A stretch of DNA of 63,414 nucleotides, filler included, from Bacteriovoracaceae bacterium (GTDB taxonomy: Bacteria > Bdellovibrionota > Bacteriovoracia > Bacteriovoracales > Bacteriovoracaceae): NCBI GenBank assembly GCA_018649885.1. It is 7 parts of 7 records of this genome, joined end to end, with 100 filler letters (N's around TTAATTAATTAA, not from the genome) between each part and the next. Parts side by side here need not be neighbours in the genome. Positions count along the whole stretch, not along the records: positions 31,922 to 41,202 come from JABIHA010000045.1; 6 more parts are not named here. The stretch is one strand, 5' to 3'. Position numbers and translations under genes: made by a program. Positions 6,854 through 52,368 of the stretch are shown in pieces (the stretch's first letter is position 1; each line of letters opens with the position of its first letter). The notes below the pieces were generated by a model, which did no database searches, was not told the DNA's origin, and worked only from the letters and a program-made list of their open reading frames with translations.

Positions 6854-8131
6854 TTATTTGGACTTATCAAATTGTGCTTCTTCTGTGGATCCTTCTAATG
6901 CAAGAGTTGATGCCTTGCCACCAGAGACGACTTTTGAGACAACATCGAAATATCCTGTCCCCACTTCTCTTTGATGTTTAGTAGCAGTGTACCCATGAAC
7001 TTCAGAAGCAAACTCTGCATCTTGAAGTCTAGAATAAGCGGCCATACCTTCTTCGCGGTAATTGCGAGCAAGCTCAAACATAGAGTAATTAAGTGCGTGA
7101 AAGCCAGCAAGAGTTACAAATTGAAATTTGTATCCCATAGCTCCTAACTCGCGTTGAAATTTAGCAATGGTCTGAGCGTCGAGATTTTTTCTCCAGTTAA
7201 ATGATGGTGAGCAGTTATAAGCAAGCTGCTTTCCTGGAAATTTATCTCTCACTGCTTCAGCAAATCTTTTGGCATCATCTAAATTAGGTGTGCTTGTTTC
7301 ACACCAAATAAGATCGGCATAAGGGGCGTAAGATAGGGCGCGATCAATGGCCGTATCAAATCCATTATTAATTCTAAAAAATCCCTCAGGTGTTCTGTCC
7401 CCTGTTAAAAATTTGTGATCTCTTTCATCAACATCACTTGTAATTAATTGGGCCGCCTCAGCGTCTGTTCTCGCCACTAAAATTGTGGGGACACCCATTA
7501 CATCAGATGCAAGTCTTGCAGCTGTTAGTGTTTTGATAAACTGAGAGGTAGGAACTAGTACCTTACCACCAAGGTGACCACATTTTTTCTCTGAGGCCAG
7601 TTGATCTTCAAAGTGAACTCCAGCGGCCCCTGACTCAATCATAGACTTCATCAGTTCGTAGGCATTAAGTGCTCCGCCAAATCCTGCTTCTGCATCTGCC
7701 ATAATCGGAACCATCCAGTCCCGTGTGACATTGCCTTCAGCATGTTCAACTTGGTCGGCCCTTTGAAGAGCATTATTAATTCTTTTAACAACAGCAGGTA
7801 CACTGTCAGCTGGGTACAAGCTTTGATCCGGATACATTTGGCCGGCCAAATTCGCGTCTGCGGCCACTTGCCATCCACTTAAGTAGACGGCCTTAAGACC
7901 TGCCTTAACTTGTTGAACAGCTTGATTACCTGTCAAGGCCCCAAGGGCATTAACGTAATCAGATTCCTTCATAAACTTCCAAAGGCTTTCTGCCCCTCGG
8001 CTAGCAAGCGTGTGCTCTATTTTAACACTTCCACGCAACCGTAGAACATCTTCAGGTTTATATGTTCTGGTGATTCCCTTCCACCGAGAATCTTCTTCCC
8101 AACTTTTTTTGATTGATTCCAATTCACTCAT
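6854..8131 (-). CDS. aceA: Isocitrate lyase
   Basis: Motifs [44 protein letters not shown] and [11 protein letters not shown]. Confidence 0.98.
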
Positions 8132-8188
8132 CATTCCCCTCCATAGAGATAAAAACAAAGAATATCTATAAATTCTTACTAATCTATA

Positions 8189-9889: not shown

Positions 9890-10103
9890 AATTTCTCCTT
9901 ATTTCCATTAAGGGGTTCTCTTTGATAGTTTGTGGCCAAAAATTATCGCTGTCAACGAATATCCGCTAAATGCCTTTTCCGCAACGTAGCGACCTGGCCC
10001 CTTTGATTTCCTATACTTCTGACGATATAAAGGACTGTAGCGCCCGGGTAATGTGGAAATATTTTTATGGGGACAAAATGCACTTTCAACAAGGTCTATT
10101 TAA

Positions 10104-15496: not shown

Positions 15497-15596
15497 NNNN
15501 NNNNNNNNNNNNNNNNNNNNNNNNNNNNNNNNNNNNNNNNTTAATTAATTAANNNNNNNNNNNNNNNNNNNNNNNNNNNNNNNNNNNNNNNNNNNN
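15497..15596. other. Artificial contig linker
   Basis: N44-TTAATTAATTAA-N44 all-frame stop spacer. Confidence 0.99.
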
Positions 15597-16427
15597 AACA
15601 CAATATAAAGCTGAAAGAGCAATTGTGACTGTCCCTCTACTAGTATTACCCATCCCAAAATCCCAAATTAATGAAATAGGAACGATTGAACTCATAAACA
15701 ATGCAGAGAGCGATGGTGGCGAGGATTGGATACCAACAATGTTAAATAATTGAATCATAATTATCATCAGAGAAAGTAGGAAGCTATACAGAAAATATTG
15801 AACTTTAAATTCATTTACTATGTGTTGTAGCTGAGGAAGTAGCATTATCAAAAATAGCATCGAGATGAGTAAACTAACTCTTCTTGTTAACTCAAAAGGC
15901 TTGTAAGATTTAGATATGACTCTTGTTGATGTTTGAGACAGTACGAAGCTAATAAGAATCGCTAAGAATAAGATTATATTTGTTGTTGAGTGGCCTTGAT
16001 CGGAAGGTCTTTCAATTACATATATTAAAAAAAGAAGAATTAGCGGAAGAAAACTTTGTATTCTTGCTTTTGGGCTTAGATTTTCTAACTTCCAATCATT
16101 GGAAAAGAAAAGTGCAAGAGTCGGAGCAATACATTTTATTAACACAATATTTGATGGGTGCAGGTTCTTTGGAAAATAAAGATATAGGAAATAGACAACA
16201 ACATACCCTGTGGCCCAGCCCAATAGGCAGAGATTAGATTTTTTGTCATTTAGAATAAGTGGCTTTTTGTCTGGCCTCATAGAAAGTATAAGAAAATTGA
16301 AAAAGTTGGCCAGGCACAAAATAGCGATATTAATGATGGAGTCAGATGAGATACTTTTAAATAACTGCAGTGCCGAACAAAGTAACAAGCTTGAGATAAT
16401 AAAATTAAAAACGCTGAGCTTTGCCAT
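15597..16427 (-). CDS. EamA/DMT-like multi-pass membrane protein (3' end cut by the contig edge)
   Basis: About 10 hydrophobic segments in two repeats, with DMT-like ...IAPTLALF and ...SSIVPISLIWD. Confidence 0.55.
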
Positions 16428-31921: not shown

Positions 31922-32630
31922 CAAGTGCTAGGGGCTGATTCAGTTCTGGTGCATATAGTTGGATAGCCCCGCCTGAAATCGTATCCACACATTTATTACT
32001 GCGCTTTGATTTTAGAACAGGAGCCTTGCCGGGCCCATCAGAATCTAAAAAAGTGCGATGGATGCCAACCAATTCACCACCTCTGGTTATCATTGCAACC
32101 ATACACGGGAACTTCCCGTAGGACTTCCCGTTATTCCAATACTCAAGTGAAGGGTGTAGCCGAAGCGTATCAGGTGGCATGACACACAACCCTCTAAACT
32201 CAAAATATTGCCTCAATCGTCTCGCCCCAGGTTGCGACTCAGCCCATATCCGCCCAAGTTGCTTACGTTCTCTCTTCCAATCTTTTTGGGATGGTAGCTG
32301 TGGTGTTTGATAGCGGAGTGTGGGCATGGCGCTTTCAACCAACCCAAGATAGTTTGTAACCGCTCTCAACGATTCTGGGAATGTCCAAGAGTTTGCCCAT
32401 TGTAAGACTGCAAAACCATCAGCACCCCCCTTACAGACATTGCAGAAAATCCCACCACTCTCTGCAAAATCGTTATGGCATCTAGCACGATCCTTCCCTC
32501 CGCAAAATGGACAAGGCCCATGTCTCTTTCCTCTTTTAATAAGTAATGAAAGGTGAGGGGCTAGAGTTGCGATGATCTCCGGCCATCTTCCAATTGCAAA
32601 TTCTTTCAATGTCTCAACACTCAGCCGCAT
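31922..32630 (-). CDS. P4-alpha-type zinc-ribbon DNA primase of a phage/satellite (3' end cut by the contig edge)
   Basis: Motifs AIGRWPEII, HGPCPFCGGKDR, FCNVC..ADGF and GIHRTFL..DG.GKA...GGAIQL. Confidence 0.88.
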
Positions 32631-32673
32631 AGATACCCCCTGGTTTTTTCAAACAATTCTTCGACTTAAAGCG

Positions 32674-32940
32674 TTAATCAAAATCATCGCCTGACAGTCC
32701 CCCGTCTTTCGTGAGGTAGGCTTCTAGGTCATCCAATCTGTAGTAATACTCCTGGCCGTCCTTAAACCAACGAGGCCCCTTACCCATGCTCCTCCAATTA
32801 CGCAGAGTACGAGGCTTCAACCCTATGACAACACGCTCAATATTCTTCGCACTGACAAGGAGTGGGCGAAATTCTCCAGACTTAAACTCGATAATTCGAG
32901 CGTCATTAGGTATTGGCTCTTGTTTTCGTTTTCGAGGCAT
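32674..32940 (-). CDS. Excisionase/AlpA-like HTH protein
   Basis: GLKPRTLRNWRSMGKGPRWFK...YYRLDDLEAYL. Confidence 0.8.
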   Translation of the reverse strand: MPRKRKQEPIPNDARIIEFKSGEFRPLLVSAKNIERVVIGLKPRTLRNWRSMGKGPRWFKDGQEYYYRLDDLEAYLTKDGGLSGDDFD

Positions 32941-32995
32941 ATCACAAAATATAAATCACAACTGGTAAAAAATGTTACTAATGTTGACAAAAAAA

Positions 32996-33811
32996 CTATT
33001 TGAAATCAGGGTCGTTTATTAGCCACTCAAGAAACTTAATATTTCCCCTGGCCTCAAGGCGGTCTTCTTTGGTGTGGCTTTTTTGTTCAATAAAAGCAAT
33101 CAGATCATCGAAGACTATTTTTGACATTTGTGGCTCAAGATTCTGATATAGCTCCCTTTTCAACCTATATCCTTCTTTCGAGTAAACAAGATTAACAACA
33201 TCATAAATGGCACGAAACCCATTAACATCACTTACTTCTATATGCTCATACCCTGCGACCGTACTGCCCTCAAAAAATCTGAATATCCGGGCAGGGGTTG
33301 TCCGCCCCTTTAAAATATCCTTCAAAACATAATCCTTAATTAACTGGCGGAGAGGCTCTCCATAAGAATCAACATCTGCAAACAATGGATCATTTTCAAA
33401 GTCAAGAGGGCCGTCAATTTCACCACTTAGAACTTTCCTGTGCTTACGTATGATATGCCCAGAAAACGCATAGGAAAACTTAGTCTGCAAATCATGATGA
33501 TTTTTCATAAACTCCTTTTCCGTTTTCCATTTCCTCAAAACCCCGTAAGACACTCCTGCCGCACGCGCAACCTCTTTAAGAGGCCAATTACGCATCAGGT
33601 AAAACAAGGCGGAATACTTTTGAACGCTGTAGCCAATTTTCTCTCCCTTAATCGTTCCCTTTCTTTGAGCAGGAACAAACTCATCCATTGCCTCAAGCAT
33701 GAACCTATTCAGCAACGTCATCACCCGCTCCTTCTTAACAGGCGCTCCACTCTTCTTTTTTGTCCTGCTCTTGGCTTTAATTTTCTTCTTCACCTTCGCC
33801 CCATTAACCAA
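32996..33811 (-). CDS. Hypothetical protein with an HTH (mobile-element regulator?)
   Basis: LKEVARAAGVSYGVLRKWK and a basic N-terminus. Confidence 0.55.
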   Translation of the reverse strand: MVNGAKVKKKIKAKSRTKKKSGAPVKKERVMTLLNRFMLEAMDEFVPAQRKGTIKGEKIGYSVQKYSALFYLMRNWPLKEVARAAGVSYGVLRKWKTEKEFMKNHHDLQTKFSYAFSGHIIRKHRKVLSGEIDGPLDFENDPLFADVDSYGEPLRQLIKDYVLKDILKGRTTPARIFRFFEGSTVAGYEHIEVSDVNGFRAIYDVVNLVYSKEGYRLKRELYQNLEPQMSKIVFDDLIAFIEQKSHTKEDRLEARGNIKFLEWLINDPDFK

Positions 33812-33969
33812 TCAACAATATTAGTAACAATAATACTAATATGTCACTAATGTCAACGAAAAAGCTGTCTTTAGGCATTTAGGAACCCTTCTGGCAACGC
33901 ACAGAGAAACAGTCTAATTTCGCAAACAAGTGGCAAAATAGTGGCAAACAGAACCATAAAAATAAAAAT

Positions 33970-33994
33970 GGGTTATGACTCGAAGTCATAACCC
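33970..33994. terminator. Hairpin just downstream of the tRNA fragment
   Basis: GGGTTATGACT-CGA-AGTCATAACCC, flanked by A- and T-rich runs. Confidence 0.6.
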
Positions 33995-34005
33995 CTTGTT
34001 TTAAG

Positions 34006-34056
34006 TGGTGGGCCGTCTCGGGATCGAACCGAGGACCTACTGATTAAGAGTCAGTT
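34006..34056 (-). mobile_element. att site: 3' fragment (51 nt) of tRNA-Lys(CTT)
   Basis: The minus strand reads AACTGACTCTTAATCAGTAGGTCCTCGGTTCGATCCCGAGACGGCCCACCA (anticodon arm, T-arm, acceptor 3' strand, CCA). The 5' acceptor strand and D-arm are absent. Confidence 0.85.
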
Positions 34057-34495
34057 ACTTCGCATAACTCGCAACAACTCATAACAACACACAACAATAG
34101 ATTCAACAAATTAGATTATATTCATTATTGGTAATTACTACTGAAACTTGTTCATTATGATATGCAAGTGTCACTACGAGTGTCACTATTATTTTTATGC
34201 AGAATATGACAGACCGTTACTCCATCCTTCCTAAATTATCCAGCACTCACCATTAAAGAAGCCGATCCGATCGCTGATCCAGCCTAAAGTTTAATTTTAT
34301 AGGGTCAAACACTCCCAAAGGCTAATAAATCATTACAGAAGAATGGCATGGCACCAATTTAAGGCTATTATTAACTTTTTCACTTTCCCAATATTTGTTA
34401 TATTGCCAGATCTACCAAATGGTTAAGCTAAAGCATTTAACACGTATTATTAAGCTGGCGTTTCATAACCTTGAACTAGCTGAAGAAATATAGAC

Positions 34496-36994
34496 ATGAC
34501 TACGGAGCTTGAATTGAATTCATTGGAACTAATAGGGGTTGAGGAAAGTCGCATAAAGAGCATTTCAAAACCCTTTAGAGTTTTAGGCATTGATTTAGGA
34601 ACTACAAATTCAACTATCTCAGAAATTCTATGGAATCCCAATACTCCAAATAACTTTAAATGTGTATGCCTTGAAATTGACCAAGAAACCACATCAGGTG
34701 TTTACAGCAATTATTTAGTCCCCTCAGTCATCGCCATTCATAATAATAAAGAAGTTGTGGGTGAGGGAGCAAAAAGGCTGTTTGGTCGAATGGTAGAATT
34801 CAATCTTACACAATATGAAAATATTTTTCTCGAATGTAAAAATGACATGGGTTGTAGGCGAACCTATCATAAAGCTCCCGATGGATATAGATCACCACCT
34901 GAAATAAGTGGAAAGATACTAAAGTTTCTTACAGAATCTGTTCCCGCAGAAAAAAACTTTCCAACTAAGAAAACTGTAATTACCATTCCCGCCTCATTTC
35001 AAGTTGCCCAAAGAACGGATACTCTAGAAGCAGCAAAAAATGCCGGAATATCAATATCTGGTGGGGAGTTAATTGACGAACCGATTGCCGCATTTATTGA
35101 CTTTTTATTAAATCATCCTGATAAAATTATTAAAAGTCTAAAGCTATCTAGTAAAGTTATTGTTTTCGATTTTGGTGGAGGAACGTGTGACGTAGCAATC
35201 TATCAAGTAATGAAAAACATAAACTCAAAATGTCTTGATTTTTCACCATTAGCTGTATCTCGCTATCATCGTTTAGGTGGAGGAGATATTGACCGAGCAA
35301 TTATTCACGATGTTTTATTACCTCAATTATTGGAGCAAAATAATTTAAAAGCTAGTGATTTAGGGTTTGAAGAAAAGAAGATATTTATAGAGCCCTCGCT
35401 TACTGCGGTCGCTCAAGCCTTAAAAATTGGGATTTCGAATGAAATAAGCCAACTAGAAGGTTTTGATAAGTATGAAGGCAAGGAAAAGAAGGAACTAGTC
35501 AAAATTCAACCAGGAAGACATATTTGCTCTCTCAAAGACCGTGACTTTATTTTGCAGTCCCCATCAATTAATGCTGAACAATTTGAAAAACTTTTAACAC
35601 CATTTTTAGATCAAGATTCTCTTTATGCGAGAGAAACTGAATATAATTTAACCTGTTCTATTTTTGCCCCTATTCAGGATGCCATAGATAGAGCACTCAT
35701 CTCTGCTGATGATATAGATTTTTCACTAATGGTTGGTGGCAGTAGTTTAATTCCTCAGGTTCAAAAAGCTGTTAAAAATTATTTTCCCAGTGCAGATACG
35801 TTAAAACACACGGATAAAGAGTCCTCGCAGTTAGCAATCTCAAAGGGAGCATCCTATCATGCTCTTGCATTAGAACTAAGAGGCAAGGGACTTTTTCAAA
35901 TAGTAGCAAACGATAAAATATCAATAAGAACAGAATCAGGCTCGGTTGATTTAATTCAAAGAGGGGAACAATTGCCCTTTCCAAAATCAAATAAGTGGCG
36001 TGAAATTTCTTCGCTTGTTGTTCCTGAAATCAACAGAACCAATCTCGTAAAGGTCAATCCCAATACAAATACTCCAGACTTTTCAGACCCAACCAGTATC
36101 ACTAATAGCTCTAATGATATTAGGGTAGAATTAATCGCTGGCATAGATGATGATGAAAGGCTTCTTTTTGAAGAGCTTTGGAGAATTCCAAATTCCGTAA
36201 AAGGAGGTGAACCACTTCTACTCAAATACAGGATGGATGAAAATCAAGTTTTCGAATTTGACTTAAGTATTCATTCGAAAAATGACTTTCCGTCATTTGA
36301 GTGCTCTATTGAAAATCCGCTAACAAATGTCGTAAACCCAAACCAAACTCGAATACGGATTCAGGAAGCCGAGGAGGATCTTAGGGCTGGAAACGTTCCA
36401 AAAAATGAAATTCCAGATAAAGTGGTAGAAATTGCTCGTGATTACAGCGAATTAAATCAAATCGAAAAGGCAATATCCTTTCTTCAAAGAGCACTAAAAA
36501 TGAAGAAAGAACCTGATTCTCATATTTTAAATCTGCTTGGAATGAATTTTGGCGACCTTAATAATTGGGAAAAAGAAGAAAGTTACTATAGGGAGGCTGC
36601 TAGAGTATCTACTAGTCGAGCCCCTCTTTTTAACCTCGCCCTTTCGCAAAAAGATAGAGGAAAATATAAGGATGCCAAGGTAACCATTAATGAAGCCATT
36701 TCAAGAGAGAGAGACGGGCCATCCATTACACTTAAAGCTCAGATATTTAAATCACTTGGCGAAGACAAACCTTACAAGGAAAACTTAAGTGAGGCTCTTG
36801 ATTGTTATGAAGACATGGATAATATGTCCGACTGGGAGCTTGGTTGGTACCTAACAGCCGCAGGACTATCAGGTGATGATGATCTGAAAAAGACTATTAA
36901 AAGTGAGCAGAAGAAAAGGGCCGCTAAATCCAAAGGCTCACTTGAGGGCAGAGGTGCCTTACCTGAAATTTCCTTAAACCTGGATACGAAATGA
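34496..36994 (+). CDS. Divergent Hsp70-family ATPase with C-terminal TPR repeats
   Basis: Motifs GIDLGTTNS, ITIPASF, IDEPIAA, VFDFGGGTCD, LGGGDID and VGGSSLIP. TPR-like helices AISFLQRAL and PLFNLALSQKDRGKYKDA. Confidence 0.88.
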   Translation: MTTELELNSLELIGVEESRIKSISKPFRVLGIDLGTTNSTISEILWNPNTPNNFKCVCLEIDQETTSGVYSNYLVPSVIAIHNNKEVVGEGAKRLFGRMVEFNLTQYENIFLECKNDMGCRRTYHKAPDGYRSPPEISGKILKFLTESVPAEKNFPTKKTVITIPASFQVAQRTDTLEAAKNAGISISGGELIDEPIAAFIDFLLNHPDKIIKSLKLSSKVIVFDFGGGTCDVAIYQVMKNINSKCLDFSPLAVSRYHRLGGGDIDRAIIHDVLLPQLLEQNNLKASDLGFEEKKIFIEPSLTAVAQALKIGISNEISQLEGFDKYEGKEKKELVKIQPGRHICSLKDRDFILQSPSINAEQFEKLLTPFLDQDSLYARETEYNLTCSIFAPIQDAIDRALISADDIDFSLMVGGSSLIPQVQKAVKNYFPSADTLKHTDKESSQLAISKGASYHALALELRGKGLFQIVANDKISIRTESGSVDLIQRGEQLPFPKSNKWREISSLVVPEINRTNLVKVNPNTNTPDFSDPTSITNSSNDIRVELIAGIDDDERLLFEELWRIPNSVKGGEPLLLKYRMDENQVFEFDLSIHSKNDFPSFECSIENPLTNVVNPNQTRIRIQEAEEDLRAGNVPKNEIPDKVVEIARDYSELNQIEKAISFLQRALKMKKEPDSHILNLLGMNFGDLNNWEKEESYYREAARVSTSRAPLFNLALSQKDRGKYKDAKVTINEAISRERDGPSITLKAQIFKSLGEDKPYKENLSEALDCYEDMDNMSDWELGWYLTAAGLSGDDDLKKTIKSEQKKRAAKSKGSLEGRGALPEISLNLDTK

Positions 36995-38226
36995 GTTGGC
37001 TTATACCGAAAAATGAATTGACCCCTGACCAGATTAGGGCCACTGAATTATCACCATCTGAAAATAGAATAATTTCAGGAGGTCCCGGCTCAGGAAAAAC
37101 TCAAATCCTTCTTCATAGAGCAAGGTATCTATTGGATTTATGTGGCAATAAAAATAATTATAAAATAATGGTTTATACAAACGTTTTAAAGGACTACATA
37201 AAATCTGACATTAACTTATTAAACTTACCAGAGGACAATGTCCTTACGTTCGACCACTGGTGCAGACTTTTTTACGAAAGCTACATAGGTGGTAAAATTC
37301 CTTGGAATTCTAAAGCACGGCAACCAAATTTCTCAGCCACCAGAAGTGCCGTTTATGAGTATATAGATAAAAATTTAACCAAACCTATCTATGACTTTAT
37401 TTTAGTTGATGAGGCTCAAGATTTAGAGGAAGAAGTATTTAACTTATTAAATAAAGTTGCTCAGCACGTCACAGTTTGTTTTGACCAAAAACAACAGATC
37501 TATGACACAGGAACTATAGAACAGGATGTTCTCGATGCTTTAGACATAAGAAAAAAAAATATAAATCTTATTGAAGCTTTTCGAGTTTCCCAATACTTAA
37601 TTGTATTAGCAAGTCAGTTTCTCCCTAAAGGAAATGAGAGAGATTTCTTCCTTGACCAAAGAAGAACAGCCAAAATGGCAAAAGAAACTCCTTTACTGTA
37701 TTACGCTGAGAATTTTGATGATGAAAAAGAAAAACTTTACGAAATGGTTAGAGAACGTCAATTAATGAATGACCGAATTGCTATATTATTTCCTCAAAAC
37801 AGACAGGTATTCGGATTTGCACAAGGCTTGAGAGAGATTGGCATAGAAGTTGAGGTTCCTAATAAGCAAAACTCTAAAAACAATGCACACAGAACCCATG
37901 ATTTTACAAGTAATCGACCAAAATTAATGTCCTATCACAGTGCCAAGGGACTCACATTTGACTCAGTATTTTTGCCTCGACTGGTTAAAAGGTCATTTAG
38001 CTGGCTTTCTGATGAGAATGTTGAGAAGCTACTTTTCATGGCAATAACCAGAGCAACAAAATGGGCATATTTCAGTACCGCAGAGGACAATCCATTGGAA
38101 ATATTGTATAAGCTTGAATCATTAGAAGAATCGGGTACGATAAAATTATTAAGGGGAACTGAAGACCGAAGGTCAAAATCTACCTCATCGAGCAAAAAGG
38201 ATGGTGATGATTTGGACTTTTTATAA
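36991..38226 (+). CDS. Compact UvrD/Rep-like (SF1) helicase
   Basis: Motifs GGPGSGKT, ILVDEAQD, DQKQQIY, SYHSAKGLTFD and FMAITRA. ATGA overlap with the Hsp70 gene. Confidence 0.9.
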   Translation: MSWLIPKNELTPDQIRATELSPSENRIISGGPGSGKTQILLHRARYLLDLCGNKNNYKIMVYTNVLKDYIKSDINLLNLPEDNVLTFDHWCRLFYESYIGGKIPWNSKARQPNFSATRSAVYEYIDKNLTKPIYDFILVDEAQDLEEEVFNLLNKVAQHVTVCFDQKQQIYDTGTIEQDVLDALDIRKKNINLIEAFRVSQYLIVLASQFLPKGNERDFFLDQRRTAKMAKETPLLYYAENFDDEKEKLYEMVRERQLMNDRIAILFPQNRQVFGFAQGLREIGIEVEVPNKQNSKNNAHRTHDFTSNRPKLMSYHSAKGLTFDSVFLPRLVKRSFSWLSDENVEKLLFMAITRATKWAYFSTAEDNPLEILYKLESLEESGTIKLLRGTEDRRSKSTSSSKKDGDDLDFL

Positions 38227-38531
38227 TCATCACCATACTGCAACGAACGAAACACATAGCCGTAAAATTAACACTGCCTCCCCTCCCTTGTTGATTTAAT
38301 TGTTAGCAAAATTTAATTTAAACTACTTTTAATCAAGTAATGCTCCTCAAATCCCCCCCCCAAAAAGCCCCAGAGTGACCTAAATTACCTTACTTTCTAG
38401 TTCTGCATGGGGCTCCCCACACTAACGCACTGAAAATACTACTATTATGATAGATACTTTTTTTCTGGGATTGAGTTCTTCGATGTGGCAATATCAGCAA
38501 CTTCAAAACAAAAAATATTGATGAGGACAAA

Positions 38532-38825
38532 ATGACAAAGGCTGACCTTGTTGAAAAAGTATCTCAGCAGATAAATTTGACAAAAAAACAAACGGAAGTA
38601 GTAGTTAATACTGTATTTCAATCCATAACCGAATCGCTTGAAAATGGTAAAGGTGTAGAAATCAGAGGTTTTGGTAGTTTCCGAATTCGTGAAAGAAATG
38701 CCAGGGTTGGTCGCAACCCTAAATCAGGAGAAGCGGTAGACGTTCCCGCTAAAAAAGTCCCCTTCTTCAAGGCAGGAAAAGAGTTGCGTGAGATTGTGGA
38801 TGAGAAAGGGTTGGAGATTTCATGA
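38532..38825 (+). CDS. HU/IHF-beta family DNA-binding protein
   Basis: MTKADLVE...VEIRGFGSF...GRNPKSGE...PFFKAGKELR. Confidence 0.95.
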   Translation: MTKADLVEKVSQQINLTKKQTEVVVNTVFQSITESLENGKGVEIRGFGSFRIRERNARVGRNPKSGEAVDVPAKKVPFFKAGKELREIVDEKGLEIS

Positions 38826-38934
38826 GCTACAGAGATACAGCCTCTTTTGGAAAACGTCAGGAATATTCAGTCATCGCTGAACTTTTAAAGCGTGGCTTCG
38901 ATGTCTATATGACTTTAGTAGACGATCAAGGAAT
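38822..38934 (+). pseudogene. N-terminal fragment of a PD-(D/E)XK-type nuclease
   Basis: GKRQEYSVIAELLKRGFDVYMTLVDDQGI matches the helix and first strand of small restriction-like nucleases. It breaks off just before the expected catalytic Asp. Confidence 0.55.
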
Positions 38935-39071
38935 AATGTGCTGTGGGCGAACACCCATGAAAACTTTACTTGAGGGAAAACTGATTTGGGATGAAAAAAA
39001 TCTAACCCAAATCTAATCTAACAGGCACCCTAAAAATCTGGTAACAGCACGATCTAGTCTGAGCCATTACA
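38926..39071 (+). mobile_element. IS481-family remnant (transposase tail plus right end)
   Basis: MCCGRTPMKTLLEGKLIWDEKNLTQI* matches the recalled C-terminus of IS481-family (ISSod13/ISEc18-like) transposases. It is followed by ...GTCTGAGCCATTACA, giving the expected ACA end. Confidence 0.7.
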
Positions 39072-39091
39072 AATTAAATCAGATACTACCC

Positions 39092-39517
39092 TCATGAGTT
39101 AGAAATTTGCTCTTTAACTCTTTTAAGAAGTTGTTCGCCATGCTGCGACGGCATGAGATTTAGGTGCATAATCTCTTCGTCTAGTTTATTGAGTAAAGAG
39201 TTAAATGCTCTTGTATCGCCCCCCCCAAACTCCAAAACGGTCTGTTGACCGAAAACAAACATGCATATAATCGTTGCCTTATCAGTCAAACACGTCACCA
39301 ACTTTTGTTTATTTAGGTCAGCAGGGGATGAAGGTAGGCTCATGAGGTTATATTTAGCAGCTTGGACGTTTGACAACTCTTTATGTAGGTCGTCACGGTT
39401 AAGTTTAGTTAGCTTTGTAGCATAGCTACTTGCATCATCCTGTGATTGAATCTCAAGCTTAGGTTCGAGCGCAGATGTTATTACCCAATCGTTCTTTTTC
39501 TTGAAAAAATCGAACAT
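39092..39517 (-). CDS. Hypothetical protein
   Basis: GGAGG RBS; directly downstream of darG on the same strand. Confidence 0.7.
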   Translation of the reverse strand: MFDFFKKKNDWVITSALEPKLEIQSQDDASSYATKLTKLNRDDLHKELSNVQAAKYNLMSLPSSPADLNKQKLVTCLTDKATIICMFVFGQQTVLEFGGGDTRAFNSLLNKLDEEIMHLNLMPSQHGEQLLKRVKEQISNS

Positions 39518-39531
39518 TCCTAATCCTCCAA

Positions 39532-40236
39532 TTAAAATAGTGATCTTTGAATTGGTGTTGTTCTGTCAGTGTCAGCTATTGTATTAGTTGCGTAAATGAA
39601 AACCTTTTCTAGTGTTTTTAACCCAACGCCTTCTACATTTATTAATTGGCTTATTTGCACTATATCAGGATTTTGGATTGCATTAATAAGTTTTTCTACA
39701 TAGTTCTTTCTTATATTTGTTTCAGTCGAGATGACTTCAATGCTCTTTGAAAGCAGTTTTTCCTTTATTTGGTCAAATAAATCGTCTTTTGCACATTTGT
39801 CGTATTTATAAATTTCAATTTCAAGATCAATTTTATCTAAATAACTTCTCATAATACTCAAGCTGACTTCTTGAGAAATTCCCCCTTTGTCAGCACCCAG
39901 CAAAGGAAACGCTATTGCCTCAATACCTTTTTCTTTATAAGAATCGCAAAACTTTTCAAGACCAGTATATAAGTATTCTTTTTTAGAAGGGTATTTCCAG
40001 TGATTTTTTGTGGGAAAGTTCAACACCCATCTTTTATGTGATTTATATAACCACAACAAACCAGTCTCTATTTTATTGTCATTACATAGGCTTATATACT
40101 TCTCATGCATTTCTGGGTACCTAAGACGACATTCAAGAGCAATACCGGCACCCATAACTCCAACGCAATTAACGGTGTTCACAATGGTTTGGCATGAACT
40201 TGTGAAAAGGTTTCCAGTGATTACCTTAACGCTCAT
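39532..40236 (-). CDS. darG: Macro-domain antitoxin DarG-like with a C-terminal HhH motif
   Basis: GNLF...IVNTVNCVGVMGAGIA, LNFPTKNHWK, AFPLLG and VEGVGLKT. Adjacent to darT; GGAGG RBS before ATG 40236. Confidence 0.82.
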   Translation of the reverse strand: MSVKVITGNLFTSSCQTIVNTVNCVGVMGAGIALECRLRYPEMHEKYISLCNDNKIETGLLWLYKSHKRWVLNFPTKNHWKYPSKKEYLYTGLEKFCDSYKEKGIEAIAFPLLGADKGGISQEVSLSIMRSYLDKIDLEIEIYKYDKCAKDDLFDQIKEKLLSKSIEVISTETNIRKNYVEKLINAIQNPDIVQISQLINVEGVGLKTLEKVFIYATNTIADTDRTTPIQRSLF

Positions 40237-40297
40237 CTTTGACCTCCCTTCACTCAACTGACCTCAATTTATTCACCTCTTGCAAGAAATTTTAGAA

Positions 40298-41047
40298 TTA
40301 AAAATAAAGCTCAGGGCTTACTTGAACCTCGTGAATACTTGTTTCTATTAATTCAGATACTTTATTGGCAGTAGAAATATCCTTGCAGTGTATCCCTTTG
40401 ATATATGAACTGGATATACTTTTAAAAACCAAACATTCACTCATCATCATAGATTTTTGCTCCACATTAATAACACCACTACCAATCTCTGCCCATGTTC
40501 TACTGCAAATCTTATCCCAATCAAACGAGGCGGCTTTAATTTTGCAACGAGTGAGGGATGAATCCCATCTTGCAGCATTTCCTTGACTGAATACCGTATA
40601 GTCTTTTTTTACAATTTCTCTATTGATTTCTAAGATAATAATTTTCCCATTAAATTGTTTGCACGTCTGGTACAACATTGCATTTCTTGAGTTGAAATAT
40701 AACGGCACGTATTCATGCAGACTACCAAAAGATTTCCTTTCTCTCTCTCTTCGCTTATTAACTTTTAGATTGCTTATATCTTTATAACCTGATGCGTCGT
40801 TATGGCATTTCAGGCCCTGACTTAAGATAGGTTTTAAGTTTAAAATATGCGTTAAATGATAGAGTCTAAAATCAAAACGCTTAATTATACCAGACACAAT
40901 AGGGTTAATTTTTTTGTCTAATAGAGCTTTATTCCACCCAATATATTTTTCACCATTATCGGTAAACAAATAGCCCCCATATTTATGTCCTTCATCTGTC
41001 AATTCGTAGGATTTGTTTCTTCTCGTAGGTTTTGTAATTAAATTCAA
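40298..41047 (-). CDS. darT: DarT (DUF4433) DNA ADP-ribosyltransferase toxin, possibly 5'-truncated
   Basis: Motifs LYHLTHILNLKPILSQGL, LHEYVPLYFNSRNAMLY, FSQGNAA and MSECLV (catalytic Glu). Confidence 0.85.
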   Translation of the reverse strand: MNLITKPTRRNKSYELTDEGHKYGGYLFTDNGEKYIGWNKALLDKKINPIVSGIIKRFDFRLYHLTHILNLKPILSQGLKCHNDASGYKDISNLKVNKRRERERKSFGSLHEYVPLYFNSRNAMLYQTCKQFNGKIIILEINREIVKKDYTVFSQGNAARWDSSLTRCKIKAASFDWDKICSRTWAEIGSGVINVEQKSMMMSECLVFKSISSSYIKGIHCKDISTANKVSELIETSIHEVQVSPELYF

Positions 41048-41062
41048 ATCTGTTAAATAATC

Positions 41063-41202
41063 TGTATGTCGTCAAATGAATGTGGACCAAAGTTGCAAAT
41101 TTCTAAGAGATACCTATCTGCCTGAAGGGGTCTTTCTTTAACCTATGGAGTTGTGAAAAATGATTCTCATTTTTACACAGGCTCCACAGGTTCTACAACA
41201 GC
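41063..41202. mobile_element. Possible IS end abutting darT
   Basis: Begins with TGT exactly where the darT frame stops looking protein-like. Contains the imperfect palindrome TGGAG-TTGTGAAAAATGA..TCATTTTTACAC-AGGCTCCA. The contig ends inside it. Confidence 0.35.
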
Positions 41203-45701: not shown

Positions 45702-46517
45702 ATGACTAATCGTATTGCTTTAGGAATTGGAAAGTTAAATAGGAATCGGCTATCTCAGGTTCTTAGGAAAAGCAGTGGCATTTTTGATGTCAAAGAAGTT
45801 GCTTGTTGGCTAGGTATTACTAGTGTGGAGGCTTCAAAAATCTTATCTTATTGGTCAAAGAATGGATGGGTCAAGAGACTAAAGAGGGGTCTATATATTC
45901 CTGTACCTTTAGAATCTAGCAATGGAGATATTGCAGTTGAAGAACCCTGGGTTTTGGCAGAGAAGTTATTCAGACCCTGCTACATTGGGGGTTGGAGCGC
46001 ATCTGAATATTTAGACTTAACGGAACAGATCTACGGCACAGTAATGATTTTTACTGCTAGCAACATTAAGCAAAAGGAAGTAAATATCGCGGGAGTCAAA
46101 TTCTACTGTAAGCGAGTTTCTGCGGATAAAATTTGGGGTACAAAAACCGAATGGAGAGGAAAGATCAAAGTATTGATTTCAGATAAAGAAAGAACTATCG
46201 TTGACATGCTTTCCGATCCTAAAGTAGGCGGTGGTATTCGCCCTGTTTTAGATGTTTTAACAGAGTATTGGGAAAGTGAAGACAGAAATATAGACAAAAT
46301 AAAAGAGTATGCAAGGAAACTTGAAAACGGTGTTATTTTTAAAAGGTTGGGATTTTTACTTGAGATGAATTTTCCAAAAGAAATCGAACTTTTAGAATAT
46401 TGCAAACAAAATATTTCAAAAGGAAACTCTAAATTAGACTCTTCCTTATATTGTAACAAATTGTCATCGAAGTGGAATCTTTGGGTGCCTGAGAATTGGA
46501 AGGTTGAAAAAAAATGA
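45702..46517 (+). CDS. abiEi: Type IV TA antitoxin AbiEi (wHTH)
   Basis: GWVKRLKRGLY, YIGGWSA...LTEQ, ISDKERTIVDML..P..GGGI and KRLGFLLE. Confidence 0.88.
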   Translation: MTNRIALGIGKLNRNRLSQVLRKSSGIFDVKEVACWLGITSVEASKILSYWSKNGWVKRLKRGLYIPVPLESSNGDIAVEEPWVLAEKLFRPCYIGGWSASEYLDLTEQIYGTVMIFTASNIKQKEVNIAGVKFYCKRVSADKIWGTKTEWRGKIKVLISDKERTIVDMLSDPKVGGGIRPVLDVLTEYWESEDRNIDKIKEYARKLENGVIFKRLGFLLEMNFPKEIELLEYCKQNISKGNSKLDSSLYCNKLSSKWNLWVPENWKVEKK

Positions 46518-47692
46518 TAGATAAAAATGAAATTATGGAAGTTTCACAAGCAGTTAACCTGCGCGCGGATGTCGTCGAAAAAGACTATATCCTGAGTTGG
46601 TTGTTAGCAGGTATAAACTGGCACAAGGATTTAAAAACCAAATGGATTTTCAAAGGTGGAACTTGCCTCAAAAAGTGTTACTTTGAGACTTATAGATTCT
46701 CTGAGGATTTAGATTTTACTGTTACAGATATAACTCACTTAAATCCTGAATACTTGAAAGAGAAATTTATAGAAATTGCTGAAATGTTGTACGAAGAGTC
46801 AGGCATCAAATGTCCTGAGGAATTAATCACTTTTAAACTCAAAAAGAATAAAAAAGGAAACCCAACAATTGAAGGTAAGGTGGGATATATTGGCCCAATG
46901 CTAAGGACAGTGAGAAGTATTGCTAAAATTAAGCTTGATTTAACAAATGATGAAATTGTTGTTTTAGAGCCTGCCCACCAGAAGCTCTACCATCCTTATA
47001 CAGATGATCCGATTAATGGAATTTCAGTTCGCTGTTATGGATATGAGGAGGTTTTTGCTGAAAAAACTAGAGCTTTGGCCGAGAGAGCACGACCACGAGA
47101 CCTGTATGACGTGATTCATCTTTTTAGAAATAATTCTCATGCAGTAAATAAAAGTTTGTTATTGTCTACTCTTAAGAAAAAATGTGACTTTAAACAAATA
47201 GCAGTACCGACATATGAATCAATACAAAAACATAAGAAATATGGAGAACTTGAAAGTGAATGGGAGAATATGCTCTCACATCAACTTCCTCTTTTACCAA
47301 GCCTAGAGCATTTCATGGGAGAATTACCAGATTTCTTCGAGTGGCTGCATTCTACTAAAGAACCTGTAATTCTTCCAGAGACAGGTCTAAAATCGGGAGA
47401 AGAAAAGTGGCAACCGGGACGAATTAGAACCTATGGAGACTTAGATCAAAGTGTTCAAAAAATTAAATTTGCAGCAGCGAACAGAGTATGTATAAGGCTC
47501 ACATACTCTAGGAAAGTCAGAACAATTGAACCTTATTCTTTTAGAAGAAGTCGTGATGGTGCGAGATTGTTCTATGGTTGGCATCAAGAGGCAGGGCAGA
47601 TTAAATGTTTTAGAATTGACCGTTTCGAGGCACTTGAAGTTACAAATATATCCTATACTCCTAGGTTTCATGTTGAGATTTCATCTAATTAA
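46514..47692 (+). CDS. abiEii: AbiEii nucleotidyltransferase toxin with a C-terminal WYL domain
   Basis: VEKDYIL, FKGGTCLKK, RFSEDLDF, AEKTRA and RPRDLYD. C-terminal LTY..RTIEPYS..LFYGW..IKCFRIDR is WYL-like. Confidence 0.9.
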   Translation: MIDKNEIMEVSQAVNLRADVVEKDYILSWLLAGINWHKDLKTKWIFKGGTCLKKCYFETYRFSEDLDFTVTDITHLNPEYLKEKFIEIAEMLYEESGIKCPEELITFKLKKNKKGNPTIEGKVGYIGPMLRTVRSIAKIKLDLTNDEIVVLEPAHQKLYHPYTDDPINGISVRCYGYEEVFAEKTRALAERARPRDLYDVIHLFRNNSHAVNKSLLLSTLKKKCDFKQIAVPTYESIQKHKKYGELESEWENMLSHQLPLLPSLEHFMGELPDFFEWLHSTKEPVILPETGLKSGEEKWQPGRIRTYGDLDQSVQKIKFAAANRVCIRLTYSRKVRTIEPYSFRRSRDGARLFYGWHQEAGQIKCFRIDRFEALEVTNISYTPRFHVEISSN

Positions 47693-48541: not shown

Positions 48542-50278
48542 TTAATTAATGGCATTTTTCAATAATTCTTCTATATGTTGACCCCATTTTTCTCGATACT
48601 GTAAAAACGTTTCTTTTCTATCTGAATTTCCATAAGACAATTCGTCTTCAGCTCTAACAAGAGCCATCAATATCAATTGTAAGGCTTCAAAACCTTTTTG
48701 GTCATTGGCTGTTTCCAAATACCGCCAAAATTGTTTATAAAATTTTGTGCGCATATTTATTTCTCCAATTGATTGGTTGTCAATAATACTTCTTTCAAGA
48801 AATAACGACCCTGGCCAACTAGTTGTAATCAAATTAACCTTAAAATCTAATTGAGTTTCAGCAATTTCTCTTGCCTCAGTCTTGGTTAACGAAGTGTCAT
48901 TATTCATAACAACTTCAATTAGTGACTCAATTTTTTGTTCAGGTGTTTGGCTACACTGTTCTGATTCAGTGTGAGAGTTGTTGTTATCAAACACCTCATT
49001 ACCTCTTTCAAGAACTGGATTTTTCTTCTTTTTTTCACTTAAAGAGCCTGACTTTCTAGAAGTAATAACACTCATCATTCCACTAATGCCTTCTGAAAGA
49101 CATCTATTTAGCTTTAATATCATCTTTGAATTAAGATTTCCATATTCGGCCTCCAGCTCAAGTGACTTAATTTTTTCCTTTGAAACACCTTTAAAACCTC
49201 TGACGTTTTGCTTGTTATTGGTAATTTTAAAAATTTTATCAAGTTCCGGTTCAAATCTTACCTCTGCGCCCCACCACCTATGTCTCGGCTCACTATTGTC
49301 AAGCAAATTAAACCTGCCAAACTCTATCTCTCTTCCAGCTCTCACAAATGAAACGCCACAATTTTCCTCGTAATGATTTCCAACTTTAGAATTTCCTCTT
49401 AAATTTTGAATTTCTGGTTTTGCCATAGAGAATGTAACAAGAACATTTGAAGTTTTAATTTCTCCATTTAAGTCTTCATAATCAATATTTAGTTCAACCT
49501 TATCAATTAACGCATTAGTTTGCTTATCTTGAAGCTCTTCATCGGGTAGATTGTTTGGAGTAAGAAGATACAAGGGGTCGTTGGCTCTCAAGCTCTCAGC
49601 TGTAATCTCACCAGTTTCAACTTGCAGATTTTTAATAGTAATATTTCTTCTCTCTCCATAGTCATCATCTTCATCTAAAAAATGCCTGTAAATTCTGCAC
49701 AATTCTTCATTGAGTCTCCTTGACAGTGTGTCTGACATTTTTACATCCAAATCAAGATCCTCCCATATAACAAGCGTCCCAGTATTACCCAGAGCCTCAT
49801 GAAAGTTTTCAATAAATTCTTTAGGAAGGTTGGTTTTGACTGGGTCCTCAATGTGCTGAATCTCATCTTTATATATTTTTGGAGAATCTATTTCAGACAT
49901 ATAAACTTCACCTGGTGACTGCCAACTATAAACTTTAACTATTTCAGCTTGAGAAATTGATGAGCCTTTTAATCCGAAACCAAATTTCCCCAATCCTTCG
50001 GTAGCATCCAATCTCGACCCCCATCCTAGACTAAGACATTTTGAAAGAGTGTCAAGATCCATGCCATGGCCATCATCCAATACGGCTAATTTAAAAACGT
50101 TGTTAGATGATCTTGCACCCACCCTCTGTTTTTTATTTATAACCAAGATATCAATATTCTCAGCCTCAGCCTGAAGTGAATTATCAATCAACTCTCCAAT
50201 TGCTGTTGCAGCGGATTTGTAACCCGCCTCTTTTATCATCTTAAGTGTGTATGCTGCATCAGCGATTGGTTGTGGCAT
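48542..50278 (-). CDS. MORC/GHKL-family ATPase
   Basis: GY...AIGELIDNS, VLDDGHGM, LGKFGFGLK and GTLVIWE, plus an S5-like region (RWWGAEVRF..ELDKIFKITNNKQ). Confidence 0.9.
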   Translation of the reverse strand: MPQPIADAAYTLKMIKEAGYKSAATAIGELIDNSLQAEAENIDILVINKKQRVGARSSNNVFKLAVLDDGHGMDLDTLSKCLSLGWGSRLDATEGLGKFGFGLKGSSISQAEIVKVYSWQSPGEVYMSEIDSPKIYKDEIQHIEDPVKTNLPKEFIENFHEALGNTGTLVIWEDLDLDVKMSDTLSRRLNEELCRIYRHFLDEDDDYGERRNITIKNLQVETGEITAESLRANDPLYLLTPNNLPDEELQDKQTNALIDKVELNIDYEDLNGEIKTSNVLVTFSMAKPEIQNLRGNSKVGNHYEENCGVSFVRAGREIEFGRFNLLDNSEPRHRWWGAEVRFEPELDKIFKITNNKQNVRGFKGVSKEKIKSLELEAEYGNLNSKMILKLNRCLSEGISGMMSVITSRKSGSLSEKKKKNPVLERGNEVFDNNNSHTESEQCSQTPEQKIESLIEVVMNNDTSLTKTEAREIAETQLDFKVNLITTSWPGSLFLERSIIDNQSIGEINMRTKFYKQFWRYLETANDQKGFEALQLILMALVRAEDELSYGNSDRKETFLQYREKWGQHIEELLKNAIN

Positions 50279-50299
50279 TGTACTTCTCCTGTATAAAAA

Positions 50300-51910
50300 C
50301 TAATTCCAATTATTTTCAAAAAATAAAAAGGCTTGATCATTATTCGGCATATTAATTAAATTATCCCTAACATTAATTACTTTACAAATATCCTCTCCCC
50401 CCATTAATCTGCCTCTTAAGCCCCTTCCAATCATTTGGGAGTACAAAACGACAGAAGTTGTAGGTCTTGCAATTACAACTGCCTTGATATTTGGCGCATC
50501 GAACCCCGTTGTTAAGACTCCATAGTTAACCAGCACATCAATAATGCCTTTTTTAAAACTTGAAATGCTCTCCCTTCTCACAGAAGTTGGTGTATCTCCA
50601 GTTACGGCTTCAGACTTAATATTATGAAGTTTTAAAAGTGTTGAGATAACTATAGCACTGTCTTTGCTTGGGGCAAACACAATAGTGGGCAGGCCTTCTT
50701 CATTAATAAGGTAGATAATTTGTGTTACTATTTTTTGCGTTCGTGCCGAATCTTTTCCAAGTTTATCTAAAACTGAATACGGGATATCTAAATGATTAGA
50801 CATGTATATTTTTTCTTTTTCGGTTAAGGTAATCTCACTATCTAAGTTGTCAATAGCTAAAAACTCTACATCAGATAAAACTTTCTTTTTAGTTAAAAAA
50901 TCTATAGGATTATCTAGCAATCCACCTTCATCATCAACTATATTAATTTTATTATTATCGTAAAAATTGGACAGCTTGCTTGTCTCTTCTGCATCTTGAT
51001 TTATATGATGCCTTCCAGGGGTTGCAGTTAAGCCTACAATATTAGTTGATGAGTTAGATAAAAATCTAATAGCCTTCTCATAAGTTGGAGCGATAGATTG
51101 GTGGGCCTCATCAATTATCAGCAACTTATTTCTGAGTCTTATTTCTGAGAAAAAATCGAATTTTTCATCGCTAGAAGAAACGGTTAAACTATAAGCAGTA
51201 TCAAAACTCGCAACAATAAAAGATGGATTTTTATCACTAAGGCCCTTAATTTTCCTCCCCCCCCAAAGTCTAACTATTTCAACATCTCTGTTGCCAAGTT
51301 TTTCCCAAATTTCTATAAAAGAAGAGGTGGCCTGCTCACACAATTCTTCGCTATGAGCTAACCAAACCACACAAAAGTTTTCTTCTTCAATTGTACGCAT
51401 GAAATCGCTAGAAGCTTCAAGTGCTGTTCTCGTCTTTCCCGCACCTGTAGGCATATGAACCATTACTTTATTTCTATCTTGGGTAGATAAAAACTCAAAA
51501 ATTTGCCTTCTAATGTGGTTTTGATATGGATATAAAGGCCTAAATATTGAGGCTTTACCTTGCTCAATATTTTTATCAGAATCATTCAAAAAGTCATTAT
51601 TAAAGCCAAATATCTGTAAATAATTTTTTGTTTTATTGTTATTTCCCCATTGGAAACTTATGGAGTTTTTATCAGGAAATCCAAACTCTTTATAGTTGAA
51701 GTTCTGAAAACTGTCATAAATTGCTTCTCTAATTTTTGAATTTCTTAAACAGGAAATCCCCCCTTCAGTCAAAATAATACTTGCCACTAAAGGGGCATTA
51801 ATTAGCTCACCTACCTCAACTAATTGCTCCAAAATATTTTCATTAATAAATGACGCAAGTTTTCTTACGCCAAGATCAATAAGAATATCTTCTAGTTTAT
51901 TTATATCCAT
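50300..51910 (-). CDS. SF2 DEAD/DEAH-box (ResIII/SSL2-like) helicase
   Basis: Motifs LYPYQ, MPTGAGKT, IIDEAH, GLTATPGR, LTTGFDAP and QMIGRGLRG. Start placed at ATG 51910, just after the upstream stop. Confidence 0.93.
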   Translation of the reverse strand: MDINKLEDILIDLGVRKLASFINENILEQLVEVGELINAPLVASIILTEGGISCLRNSKIREAIYDSFQNFNYKEFGFPDKNSISFQWGNNNKTKNYLQIFGFNNDFLNDSDKNIEQGKASIFRPLYPYQNHIRRQIFEFLSTQDRNKVMVHMPTGAGKTRTALEASSDFMRTIEEENFCVVWLAHSEELCEQATSSFIEIWEKLGNRDVEIVRLWGGRKIKGLSDKNPSFIVASFDTAYSLTVSSSDEKFDFFSEIRLRNKLLIIDEAHQSIAPTYEKAIRFLSNSSTNIVGLTATPGRHHINQDAEETSKLSNFYDNNKINIVDDEGGLLDNPIDFLTKKKVLSDVEFLAIDNLDSEITLTEKEKIYMSNHLDIPYSVLDKLGKDSARTQKIVTQIIYLINEEGLPTIVFAPSKDSAIVISTLLKLHNIKSEAVTGDTPTSVRRESISSFKKGIIDVLVNYGVLTTGFDAPNIKAVVIARPTTSVVLYSQMIGRGLRGRLMGGEDICKVINVRDNLINMPNNDQAFLFFENNWN

Positions 51911-51912
51911 AT

Positions 51913-52368
51913 TCACAATGAACACATGGTACAAGCCTGATCTTCAGGCTCGTCATCATCTTGCTCTTTCACAATATCTTGCCAACTTCGCGTCTCCTTG
52001 GCTTTAAATTTTTTTCCAGCAGCTTCATTCTCTTCAGCTTTCCCTATGACAACATCTAAAGATCCACTCTGTGACCAGGTATAACCTTGACCACACTCCT
52101 TTCTTTCGCCTGTACTCCAATCAAAACCCTTCTTGTGAACGCTTTCTTCAATAGCTTTAGCTTGCTCAAAAAGTTCTGGATGATTCCTTTTTAAACCCAG
52201 CCACTCTTCTTGTCGTTGAAAGAAACAAAAAAAACAACCTGATCTGGATCGCCACTTGTAATACTCAGGGATGCCAACAGACTCTTCAAGAATCCTAAAG
52301 ACGTCCTCTCTAACAATGCCATCACCTATAAATGGAAATACAGCTTTAATATTTGGCTTTTTGCTGAC
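51913..52368 (-). CDS. SspD/BrxP-like PAPS-reductase family protein (C-terminal part; 5' end cut by the contig edge)
   Basis: Manual translation gives ...PEYYKWRSRSGCFFCFFQRQEEWLGLKRNHPELFEQAKAIE...YTWSQ...ACTMCSL*. Not in the ORF track. Confidence 0.8.
   Translation of the reverse strand, partial: VSKKPNIKAVFPFIGDGIVREDVFRILEESVGIPEYYKWRSRSGCFFCFFQRQEEWLGLKRNHPELFEQAKAIEESVHKKGFDWSTGERKECGQGYTWSQSGSLDVVIGKAEENEAAGKKFKAKETRSWQDIVKEQDDDEPEDQACTMCSL

Follow-up and report, generated by a model that had tools for sequence, protein, structure and literature searches.

A coupled gene pair encoding an Hsp70-TPR protein and a minimal UvrD-like helicase as a candidate phage-defence module

The Hsp70-TPR and helicase genes

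The DNA analysed here (the window, 63,414 nucleotides of a Bacteriovoracaceae bacterium, assembly GCA_018649885.1) consists of seven contigs joined by N spacers, one of which (G000:C74, 9,281 bp, window 31922-41202) carries two genes that the original prediction had put forward as a candidate defence system. ORF1 (34496-36994, + strand) encodes an 832-aa Hsp70-like protein with tetratricopeptide repeats (TPRs), hereafter Hsp70-TPR, and ORF2 (36991-38226, + strand) encodes a 411-aa superfamily 1 (SF1) helicase. The two share the four nucleotides ATGA at 36991-36994, as had been described. Marine public DNA contigs carry both genes with zero differences, possibly from the run that was the source sample. 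As a check on mis-binning, the tetranucleotide composition of C74 was found to be no outlier (26th lowest of 112 contigs); the assembly exceeds its 40 relatives in size, and the helicase was found in none of these 40 related genomes. A promoter scan at the locus stayed at chance level and found no terminator. RNA-library contigs overlap the Hsp70 gene in part; since they overlap further regions of C74 too, they do not demonstrate its transcription.

Pfam matches, an AF2 model and an alignment with DnaK divide Hsp70-TPR into an Hsp70 nucleotide-binding domain (NBD, aa ~27-465, 34574-35890), a divergent substrate-binding domain (SBD-beta sandwich, aa ~466-608, 35891-36319) and an array of TPRs (aa ~609-812, 36320-36931) that replaces the alpha-helical lid. 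An alternative database call starts at a TTG at codon 7 and gives 826 aa. The protein matches Pfam HSP70 (E 1e-27) and TPR families, with about 106-110 bits against NCBIfam DnaK/HscA cut-offs of 620-820. Its model (pLDDT 89, pTM 0.86, from a 74-row alignment) superposes on the NBD and SBD-beta of DnaK/BiP, with the TPR helices in the place of the lid; the lowest rmsd (~6 Å over ~627 columns) was to BiP, for example entries 6zmd and 6eof. The ATPase motifs align with those of DnaK, and the catalytic positions D33, G35, T36, K115, E195, D225, T230 and D232 are invariant in 110/110 full-length rows. The expectation of intact ATPase motifs, a divergent substrate-binding region and TPRs was thus confirmed, as was the lack of dnaJ and grpE on the contig; the grpE-dnaK-dnaJ cluster of the host lies on another contig, C105. 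The near-invariant F712, N713 and W784 mark a candidate peptide-binding groove in the modelled TPR array. A look-alike search for its ligand returned generic TPR matches alone, and TPR conservation gave no evident Hop-type carboxylate clamp at the positions that we take to form one.

The helicase is of the UvrD/PcrA type according to Pfam (UvrD N- and C-terminal matches), its AF2 model and an alignment with PcrA. The model (pLDDT 90) consists of a pair of RecA-like domains, carries a short 1B insert and has no 2B domain, and the absence of a nuclease domain that had been noted is borne out, as no nuclease family matched in Pfam at E<=0.05. The alignment with PcrA shows Walker A/B retained, along with the glutamine and tyrosine of motif III and the arginines of motifs IV and VI; Walker A/B and the arginine finger are conserved in the helicase. 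The best matches in sequence and fold include UvrD/PcrA and HelD, and the structural matches of lowest rmsd were SLFN11 structures (~5 Å). After a variable, low-confidence linker, the protein ends in an acidic-then-hydrophobic tail (aa 404-411, 38200-38223, + strand). By a scoring rule fixed after inspection of the tails, this tail is present in 86/105 near-full-length helicase representatives versus 47/748 other genes; two paired helicases, at L011 and L014, end early. On a matrix built from the family tails, the tails of two phage single-stranded DNA-binding proteins (SSBs), T7 gp2.5 and T4 gp32, rank in the highest 1% among the ORF ends of the host. The likeness of the helicase tail to SSB tails is modest, and we treat it as a lead only. 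Phage SSBs trigger several defence systems, according to the accessible part of bioRxiv 2022.08.27.505566.

Conservation of the pair and its genomic neighbourhood

Searched with its SBD-TPR half, Hsp70-TPR retrieved 569 proteins, most of ~800 aa. The genome scan that started from this gene comprised the best 80 of 453 confirmed stretches, so that the locus set leans to close relatives. Fifty-nine of these 80 loci were paired, 11 were ended by contig ends and 10 lacked the helicase (one of them with a truncated Hsp70), which places the helicase directly downstream in 59/69 informative loci. The intergenic spacing was between -4 and +27 nt in 58/58 measured loci, and exactly -4 in 35 of them; one paired locus was left out of this measurement over its ORF call. 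The scan that started from the helicase (the best 80 of 271 loci) found 72/80 paired, 69 by tblastn and three more by HMM (hidden Markov model). The rest comprised two N-truncated fragments without an Hsp70 and six loci with too little upstream DNA, and none was a full-length orphan helicase. The pairwise identities of one gene track those of the other (r 0.69, versus a shuffle maximum of 0.17), and both genes have the same nearest neighbour in 57/89 cases. The 80 genome loci cover 15 named phyla, which are intermixed in a FastTree tree of the Hsp70-TPR family. This supports a conserved, coupled and mobile two-gene module.

Phages and plasmids yielded one weak match each (26-27% identity). Viral contigs gave zero loci with the single protein as query and five with an alignment, one of them close and two with a distant three-gene arrangement. 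In the latter (L205:7929-12901 and L206, ~30% identity), Hsp70-TPR is 802 aa and the mini-helicase 389 aa, followed by a 455-aa gene; the mini-helicase tail is hydrophobic and non-acidic, and type I restriction-modification (RM) and mobilisation-like genes lie nearby. The third gene of the L205 form has no match in 200 loci or in the genome.

The neighbourhood of the pair was scored leave-one-locus-out at paired loci with at least 10 kb of flank, and a defence-type gene was found at 33/58 loci (19/38 genome, 14/20 metagenome) versus 5/40 controls (fixed-position 20-kb regions from ten of the same genomes), with a reference set that was drawn from the loci themselves and includes Fic and SNF2, and with loci that are partly non-independent. 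In the matched ten genomes, the counts were 5/10 loci and 5/40 controls. The predicted enrichment of defence genes around the pair therefore holds up in this comparison. The location beside a tRNA, which had been offered as general support, was rejected as such: a tRNA was present at 8/58 loci and 6/40 controls, which is no enrichment.

A Pfam scan of 96 selected proteins among 405 cluster representatives named the neighbours. The commonest were SNF2 helicases (25 loci), Eco57I-type methyltransferases (19), type ISP (9), type III Mod (7) and DUF499 (5) proteins; those that appeared once include BrxL, GmrSD, Dnd, Hachiman, AbiE, Cas6 and EcoRV. This company, together with the lack of a nuclease of its own, would fit an accessory of neighbouring restriction systems or of the mobile element, which would remodel, protect or license complexes of the SNF2/methyltransferase, type ISP, type III or BREX-like kinds and give no defence alone. 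We give such a role a low probability: the partners are mutually unrelated and often absent, none lies on the window contig, and the families immediately next to the pair reach at most 6/110 loci downstream and 5/87 upstream.

Several further genes were observed close to the pair. Eleven loci, including L021, L042, L091 and L151, have a DprA-like gene (~200 aa) nearby; DprA homologues bind single-stranded DNA (ssDNA) and SSB, as stated in the part of bioRxiv 2022.08.27.505566 available to us. Two linked genes (~430 and ~460 aa) follow the helicase at L007 (10123-12760), L134 and L153, and the second of them begins with an Hsp70/actin-like motif and has no Pfam match at E<=1e-3. At L016 (8870-10714), a 614-aa UvrD-like protein with an N-terminal region that looks NERD-like by eye follows the pair and is possibly an occasional nuclease partner.

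Predicted complex, natural variants and proposed mechanism

A complex was predicted from Hsp70 residues 20-608 and the whole helicase, the TPR array being beyond the size limit. Its ipSAE was 0.81, and the best of three controls reached 0.00; in a benchmark that is approximate with our own alignments, the mark was reached by 116/157 solved complexes and by 2/215 mismatched pairs. Runs agreed in at least 87% of contacts, with a partner pLDDT of at least 76. The prediction supports, and does not by itself show, direct binding of Hsp70-TPR and helicase. Two patches on the Hsp70 side are predicted to touch the helicase, one in subdomain IB (aa 60-74 and R94, 34673-34717) and one in subdomain IIB (aa 304-342 and 355, 35405-35521), the boundaries being those that we presume for DnaK, laid on by alignment. 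The main predicted Hsp70-contact surface of the helicase is in 2A (aa 228-260, 37672-37770), with further contacts at aa 283-286, aa 307-310 and the N-terminus. In the model, 2A thus spans IB and IIB at the mouth of the nucleotide cleft, the site of exchange factors. To our knowledge, no described Hsp70 has a dedicated helicase partner there. The helicase tail lies outside the confident contacts of this NBD/SBD-beta complex, which is evidence neither way. Codon 307 (window 35414-35416), within the predicted interface, encodes Q here versus E in 109/110 rows.

The interface could be compared with natural variation, since Hsp70-TPR also occurs without its partner. The 109 full-length genes include 98 paired, nine solo and two undecidable cases, and the solo genes fall into about four lineages of the tree. 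G68, R94, E316, position 319, L320 and P339 had been flagged as specific to paired proteins ahead of the complex run. The four solo lineages have lost 11, 10, 9 and 7 of 16 conserved interface positions, compared with 51, 60, 31 and 65 of 263 elsewhere (p values 5e-5, 1e-3, 6e-5 and 0.09), and in excess interface loss 8/9 solo proteins lie above all 98 paired ones. No replacement partner was found for the nine solo genes, whose downstream genes are mutually unrelated.

A second kind of variant was found by a profile search and a fusion-seeded search. In P0161, P0189 and P0291, the NBD is joined straight to the helicase; a word search for longer fused helicases, weak by design, returned none at E<=1e-10. 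In all three fusions, SBD-TPR and the tail are absent (tail scores -4, -1 and -11 versus a family median of 9) and the catalytic motifs of the Hsp70 have decayed. They retain Walker A/B and the motif-VI arginine, with motif III relaxed in two, and have lost 4, 7 and 5 of the 16 interface residues versus ~40% of positions elsewhere. Together with the absence of orphan helicases, the fusions suggest that the helicase requires the NBD for structural reasons and acts as the working part, and that SBD-TPR and tail could form a regulatory pair. A different join was observed in P0269, in which SBD-TPR is followed by the 2A half of the helicase and the tail is kept; its 90% cluster has 20 members, many of them partial.

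On this basis, we favour, tentatively and at a little under an even chance, a mobile cassette that defends against phages, in which Hsp70-TPR is a switch driven by ATP and the nuclease-free helicase is its effector. Helicase 2A is predicted to sit across Hsp70 IB/IIB. The TPR array in the place of the lid, or SBD-beta, might hold the acidic-hydrophobic tail of the helicase and keep the motor off, until an invader protein with an exposed peptide, perhaps an SSB-type acidic tail, binds to the SBD/TPR module. Peptide binding would then push Hsp70 through its ATP cycle and release the tail. Still attached to the NBD, the helicase might thereafter translocate on single-stranded replication or recombination intermediates, where it would strip proteins or stall forks and burn ATP, and infection would be limited or aborted without a nuclease. 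The original prediction had paired a chaperone-type sensor with a helicase effector; this polarity draws support from the predicted complex, the interface decay in lineages without the helicase and the natural fusions. Distinctly improbable, to our mind, is a version specified throughout: an SF1 helicase clamped at the exchange-factor site of an Hsp70 and held off by its own SSB-like tail in the lid-replacing TPRs, from which phage SSB tails displace it and so free the nuclease-free motor onto phage replication forks, a form of self-mimicry sensing by a repurposed chaperone.

If the defence reading is true, bacterial immunity would gain a mechanism that is gated by a chaperone and needs no nuclease, and the proposal that Hsp70-like NTPases can replace STAND ATPases as immune switches could be tested directly. 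Even without defence, the pair would represent a new Hsp70 architecture, with TPRs for the lid, and a new class of co-factor. The IB/IIB interface, the helicase tail and the natural separation-of-function variants (solo Hsp70-TPR and NBD-helicase fusions) provide handles at residue level.

The opposite polarity can also be drawn from the same complex. The helicase would then be an ssDNA- or RNA-guided co-chaperone, acting as an exchange or targeting factor, and Hsp70-TPR would be the effector that dismantles replication or transcription complexes of the invader, in the way that DnaK pulls apart complexes at phage and plasmid origins. The predicted contact at IB/IIB agrees with this, as the described Hsp70 nucleotide-exchange factors all target IIB, according to the part of PMC4753570 that was accessible. 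Among the loci, GrpE is found at none and DnaJ matches at one (L062), beside a second DnaK-like gene. The invariant Hsp70 catalytic residues and the survival of Hsp70-TPR without the helicase in about four lineages also favour it, and SLFN11, the lowest-rmsd match of the helicase model, is an ssDNA sensor in the accessible text of PMC11615386. We nevertheless regard the reversed roles as unlikely: the fused lineage loses the Hsp70 catalytic residues and the SBD and keeps the helicase motifs, and the lid used for canonical client trapping has been replaced.

Several observations weigh against defence with the helicase as effector. As to function, 14/38 genome loci have no labelled defence neighbour, some of them lying among metabolic genes. 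No nuclease or other toxic domain was found by Pfam in either gene and no third gene is conserved in the clade of the pair (the top neighbouring families being those at 6/110 and 5/87), so that a lethal output is a guess. The helicase also lacks the motif-III W/R and the motif-IVa R of PcrA, which presumably contact DNA, and its unwinding may therefore be weak. As to polarity, nine full-length Hsp70-TPR genes persist without an adjacent helicase, and no full helicase was found in the solo genomes, which are metagenome-assembled genomes of unstated completeness. The solo proteins keep the TPR groove residues, which are therefore not specific to the tail, and in one solo lineage, L076, the decay of the interface is not significant (p 0.09). 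The three fusions share 42-48% identity, come from one contig each and probably represent one lineage or event. As to the tail, 16 and 35 of 4,863 host ORFs outscore those of T7 gp2.5 and T4 gp32, respectively, and the host SSB candidate ranks 99th on the matrix.

The loci without a defence neighbour would also fit a stress or repair module that hitch-hikes in islands, for instance one that recycles stalled RNA polymerase or replisomes in the manner of HelD or PcrA. Both proteins rank with the closest matches of the helicase in sequence and fold, and a family helicase, P0206, carries the Tudor domain of PcrA/UvrD, which we take to bind RNA polymerase, inserted ahead of the conserved tail. The module is, however, rare, patchy and mixed across phyla, defence genes are enriched around it over same-genome controls (5/10 versus 5/40), and the host has a separate grpE-dnaK-dnaJ cluster. 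A role outside defence therefore seems very improbable to us.

Relation to known systems and the integration site

The defence-model set used was PADLOC-DB 2.0.0 (2023). As anticipated, it gave no full match: Hsp70-TPR matched no model at E<=0.01, and the helicase had generic UvrD-level matches, namely partial ones to GajB (best E 2e-17) and NERD-UvrD. The closest known system is CoCoNuT type III (PMC11090510), whose CnuD/CnuCD and CnuH likewise combine an Hsp70-like NBD/SBD, helical repeats and an SF1 helicase in one operon within defence islands. Type III CoCoNuTs are built on a McrB/McrC core and a nuclease effector, the repeats of CnuD/CnuCD are HEAT-like, the Walker A-like motifs of CnuD are degenerate, and CnuH, a helicase of the UPF1 kind, carries large coiled-coil and OB insertions (PMC11090510). 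In our case, by contrast, McrB/McrC has no match among the scanned genes of the window contig, and a McrB-like AAA_5 gene is present at 1/58 long-flank loci. The 411-aa helicase is modelled as two RecA domains without large insertions and matches UvrD/PcrA best, the catalytic residues of Hsp70-TPR are invariant, and the pair has neither a nuclease domain (HEPN, Vsr or PLD) in either gene nor a conserved adjacent gene.

Gabija resembles the pair in its compact UvrD-like helicase GajB, whose partner GajA is a nuclease. The analogy with GajB that had been drawn does not carry over, since the matches are at the generic UvrD level and GajA was not found; the partner gene is instead a Pfam HSP70 protein. 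STAND/Avs-type 'tripartite' systems share with the pair an NTPase switch joined to C-terminal TPRs, whereas Hsp70-TPR has an Hsp70-fold NTPase, no STAND domain, no Avs model match and no fused N-terminal effector, and its putative effector is a separate helicase predicted to sit on the NBD. Hsp70-like NTPases can replace STAND as an immune switch, as proposed in the available part of a preprint (bioRxiv 10.64898/2026.10.19.760177).

With the DnaK system, the pair shares the NBD and SBD-beta fold, intact ATPase residues and, like exchange factors, a predicted contact of the partner with IIB. It differs in having TPRs for the lid, no J-protein or GrpE in the cassette, an SF1 ATPase as the predicted IIB partner and scores far below the DnaK/HscA cut-offs. 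Predicted conflict systems of GTPases and tubulins also include Hsp70 in operons, sometimes beside TPR proteins; in the accessible portion of PMC7159879, these centre on GTPases, tubulins or GrpE/DnaJ, and 'UvrD' is absent from the main text. The Hsp70 passages available in PMC8195603 and PMC3710099 describe other systems. No description of an Hsp70-TPR/helicase pair was found in literature searches at the level of titles and abstracts, mostly of open-access papers, and catalogues of predicted defence families may include it. The pair thus fails membership of CoCoNuT, Gabija, Avs and DnaK, consistent with the earlier impression that it is not a named system. From sequence and models, it would work like an NTPase-switch immune module that belongs to none of the tested families and is unnamed within this search scope.

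The pair had been described as the first cargo beside a tRNA attachment (att) site. The att core is present as a tRNA-Lys(CTT) 3' half with its 3' flank (33994-34059, - strand, Rfam 31.9 bits), and ARAGORN found no intact tRNA there; with only the 3' half present, the pair would lie at a probable attR end and not behind an intact tRNA. The remnant is 94% identical across 66 nt to the intact tRNA-Lys gene on contig C70. A paired arm-type direct repeat (34169-34188, + strand) occurs exactly at two sites in a genome-wide motif search, at window 34169 and on C70 beside the intact tRNA-Lys and an integrase. C70 (35.6 kb, outside the window) carries tRNA-Lys(CTT) at 16554-16629 and the integrase-like ORF at 15110-16162, with flanking genes that look RM-like, helicase and patatin-type by eye. 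This region probably forms the far end of the element in which the pair resides, and we infer that the pair lies last in the cargo, next to attR, of an element at tRNA-Lys; the assembly leaves C70 and C74 unjoined. Also on C70, at 6517-11125, a 1053-aa ORF precedes a 471-aa ORF in which an actin/Hsp70-like phosphate-1 motif was seen by eye; it has no tblastn match to Hsp70-TPR.

Downstream of the helicase lies an IHF/HU-family gene (38532-38825, + strand, Pfam), which is not a conserved part of the module, followed by the truncated remnant of a PD-(D/E)xK-like ORF (38822-39016, + strand). The remnant, called a nuclease remnant in the original prediction, is a shortened copy of a longer ORF on C70, and its designation as a nuclease comes from a PD-(D/E)xK-like motif recognised by eye. 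The darT-darG toxin-antitoxin/defence pair reported on the same contig (39532-41047, - strand) was confirmed for both genes by PADLOC and Pfam. The contig end (41063-41202) has a far higher read depth, and 108 nt of it are 100% identical to the end of C70; this stretch is the repeat that broke the assembly. Beyond the att core, the genes for a Zn-ribbon primase, an excisionase-like HTH_17 protein and an HTH protein of 271 aa (31922-33811, - strand) likely make up another element of satellite type in tandem. Elsewhere in the window, small contigs carry an AbiEi/AbiEii pair and a pair of GHKL-ATPase and helicase genes (45702-47692, + strand, and 48542-51934, - strand).

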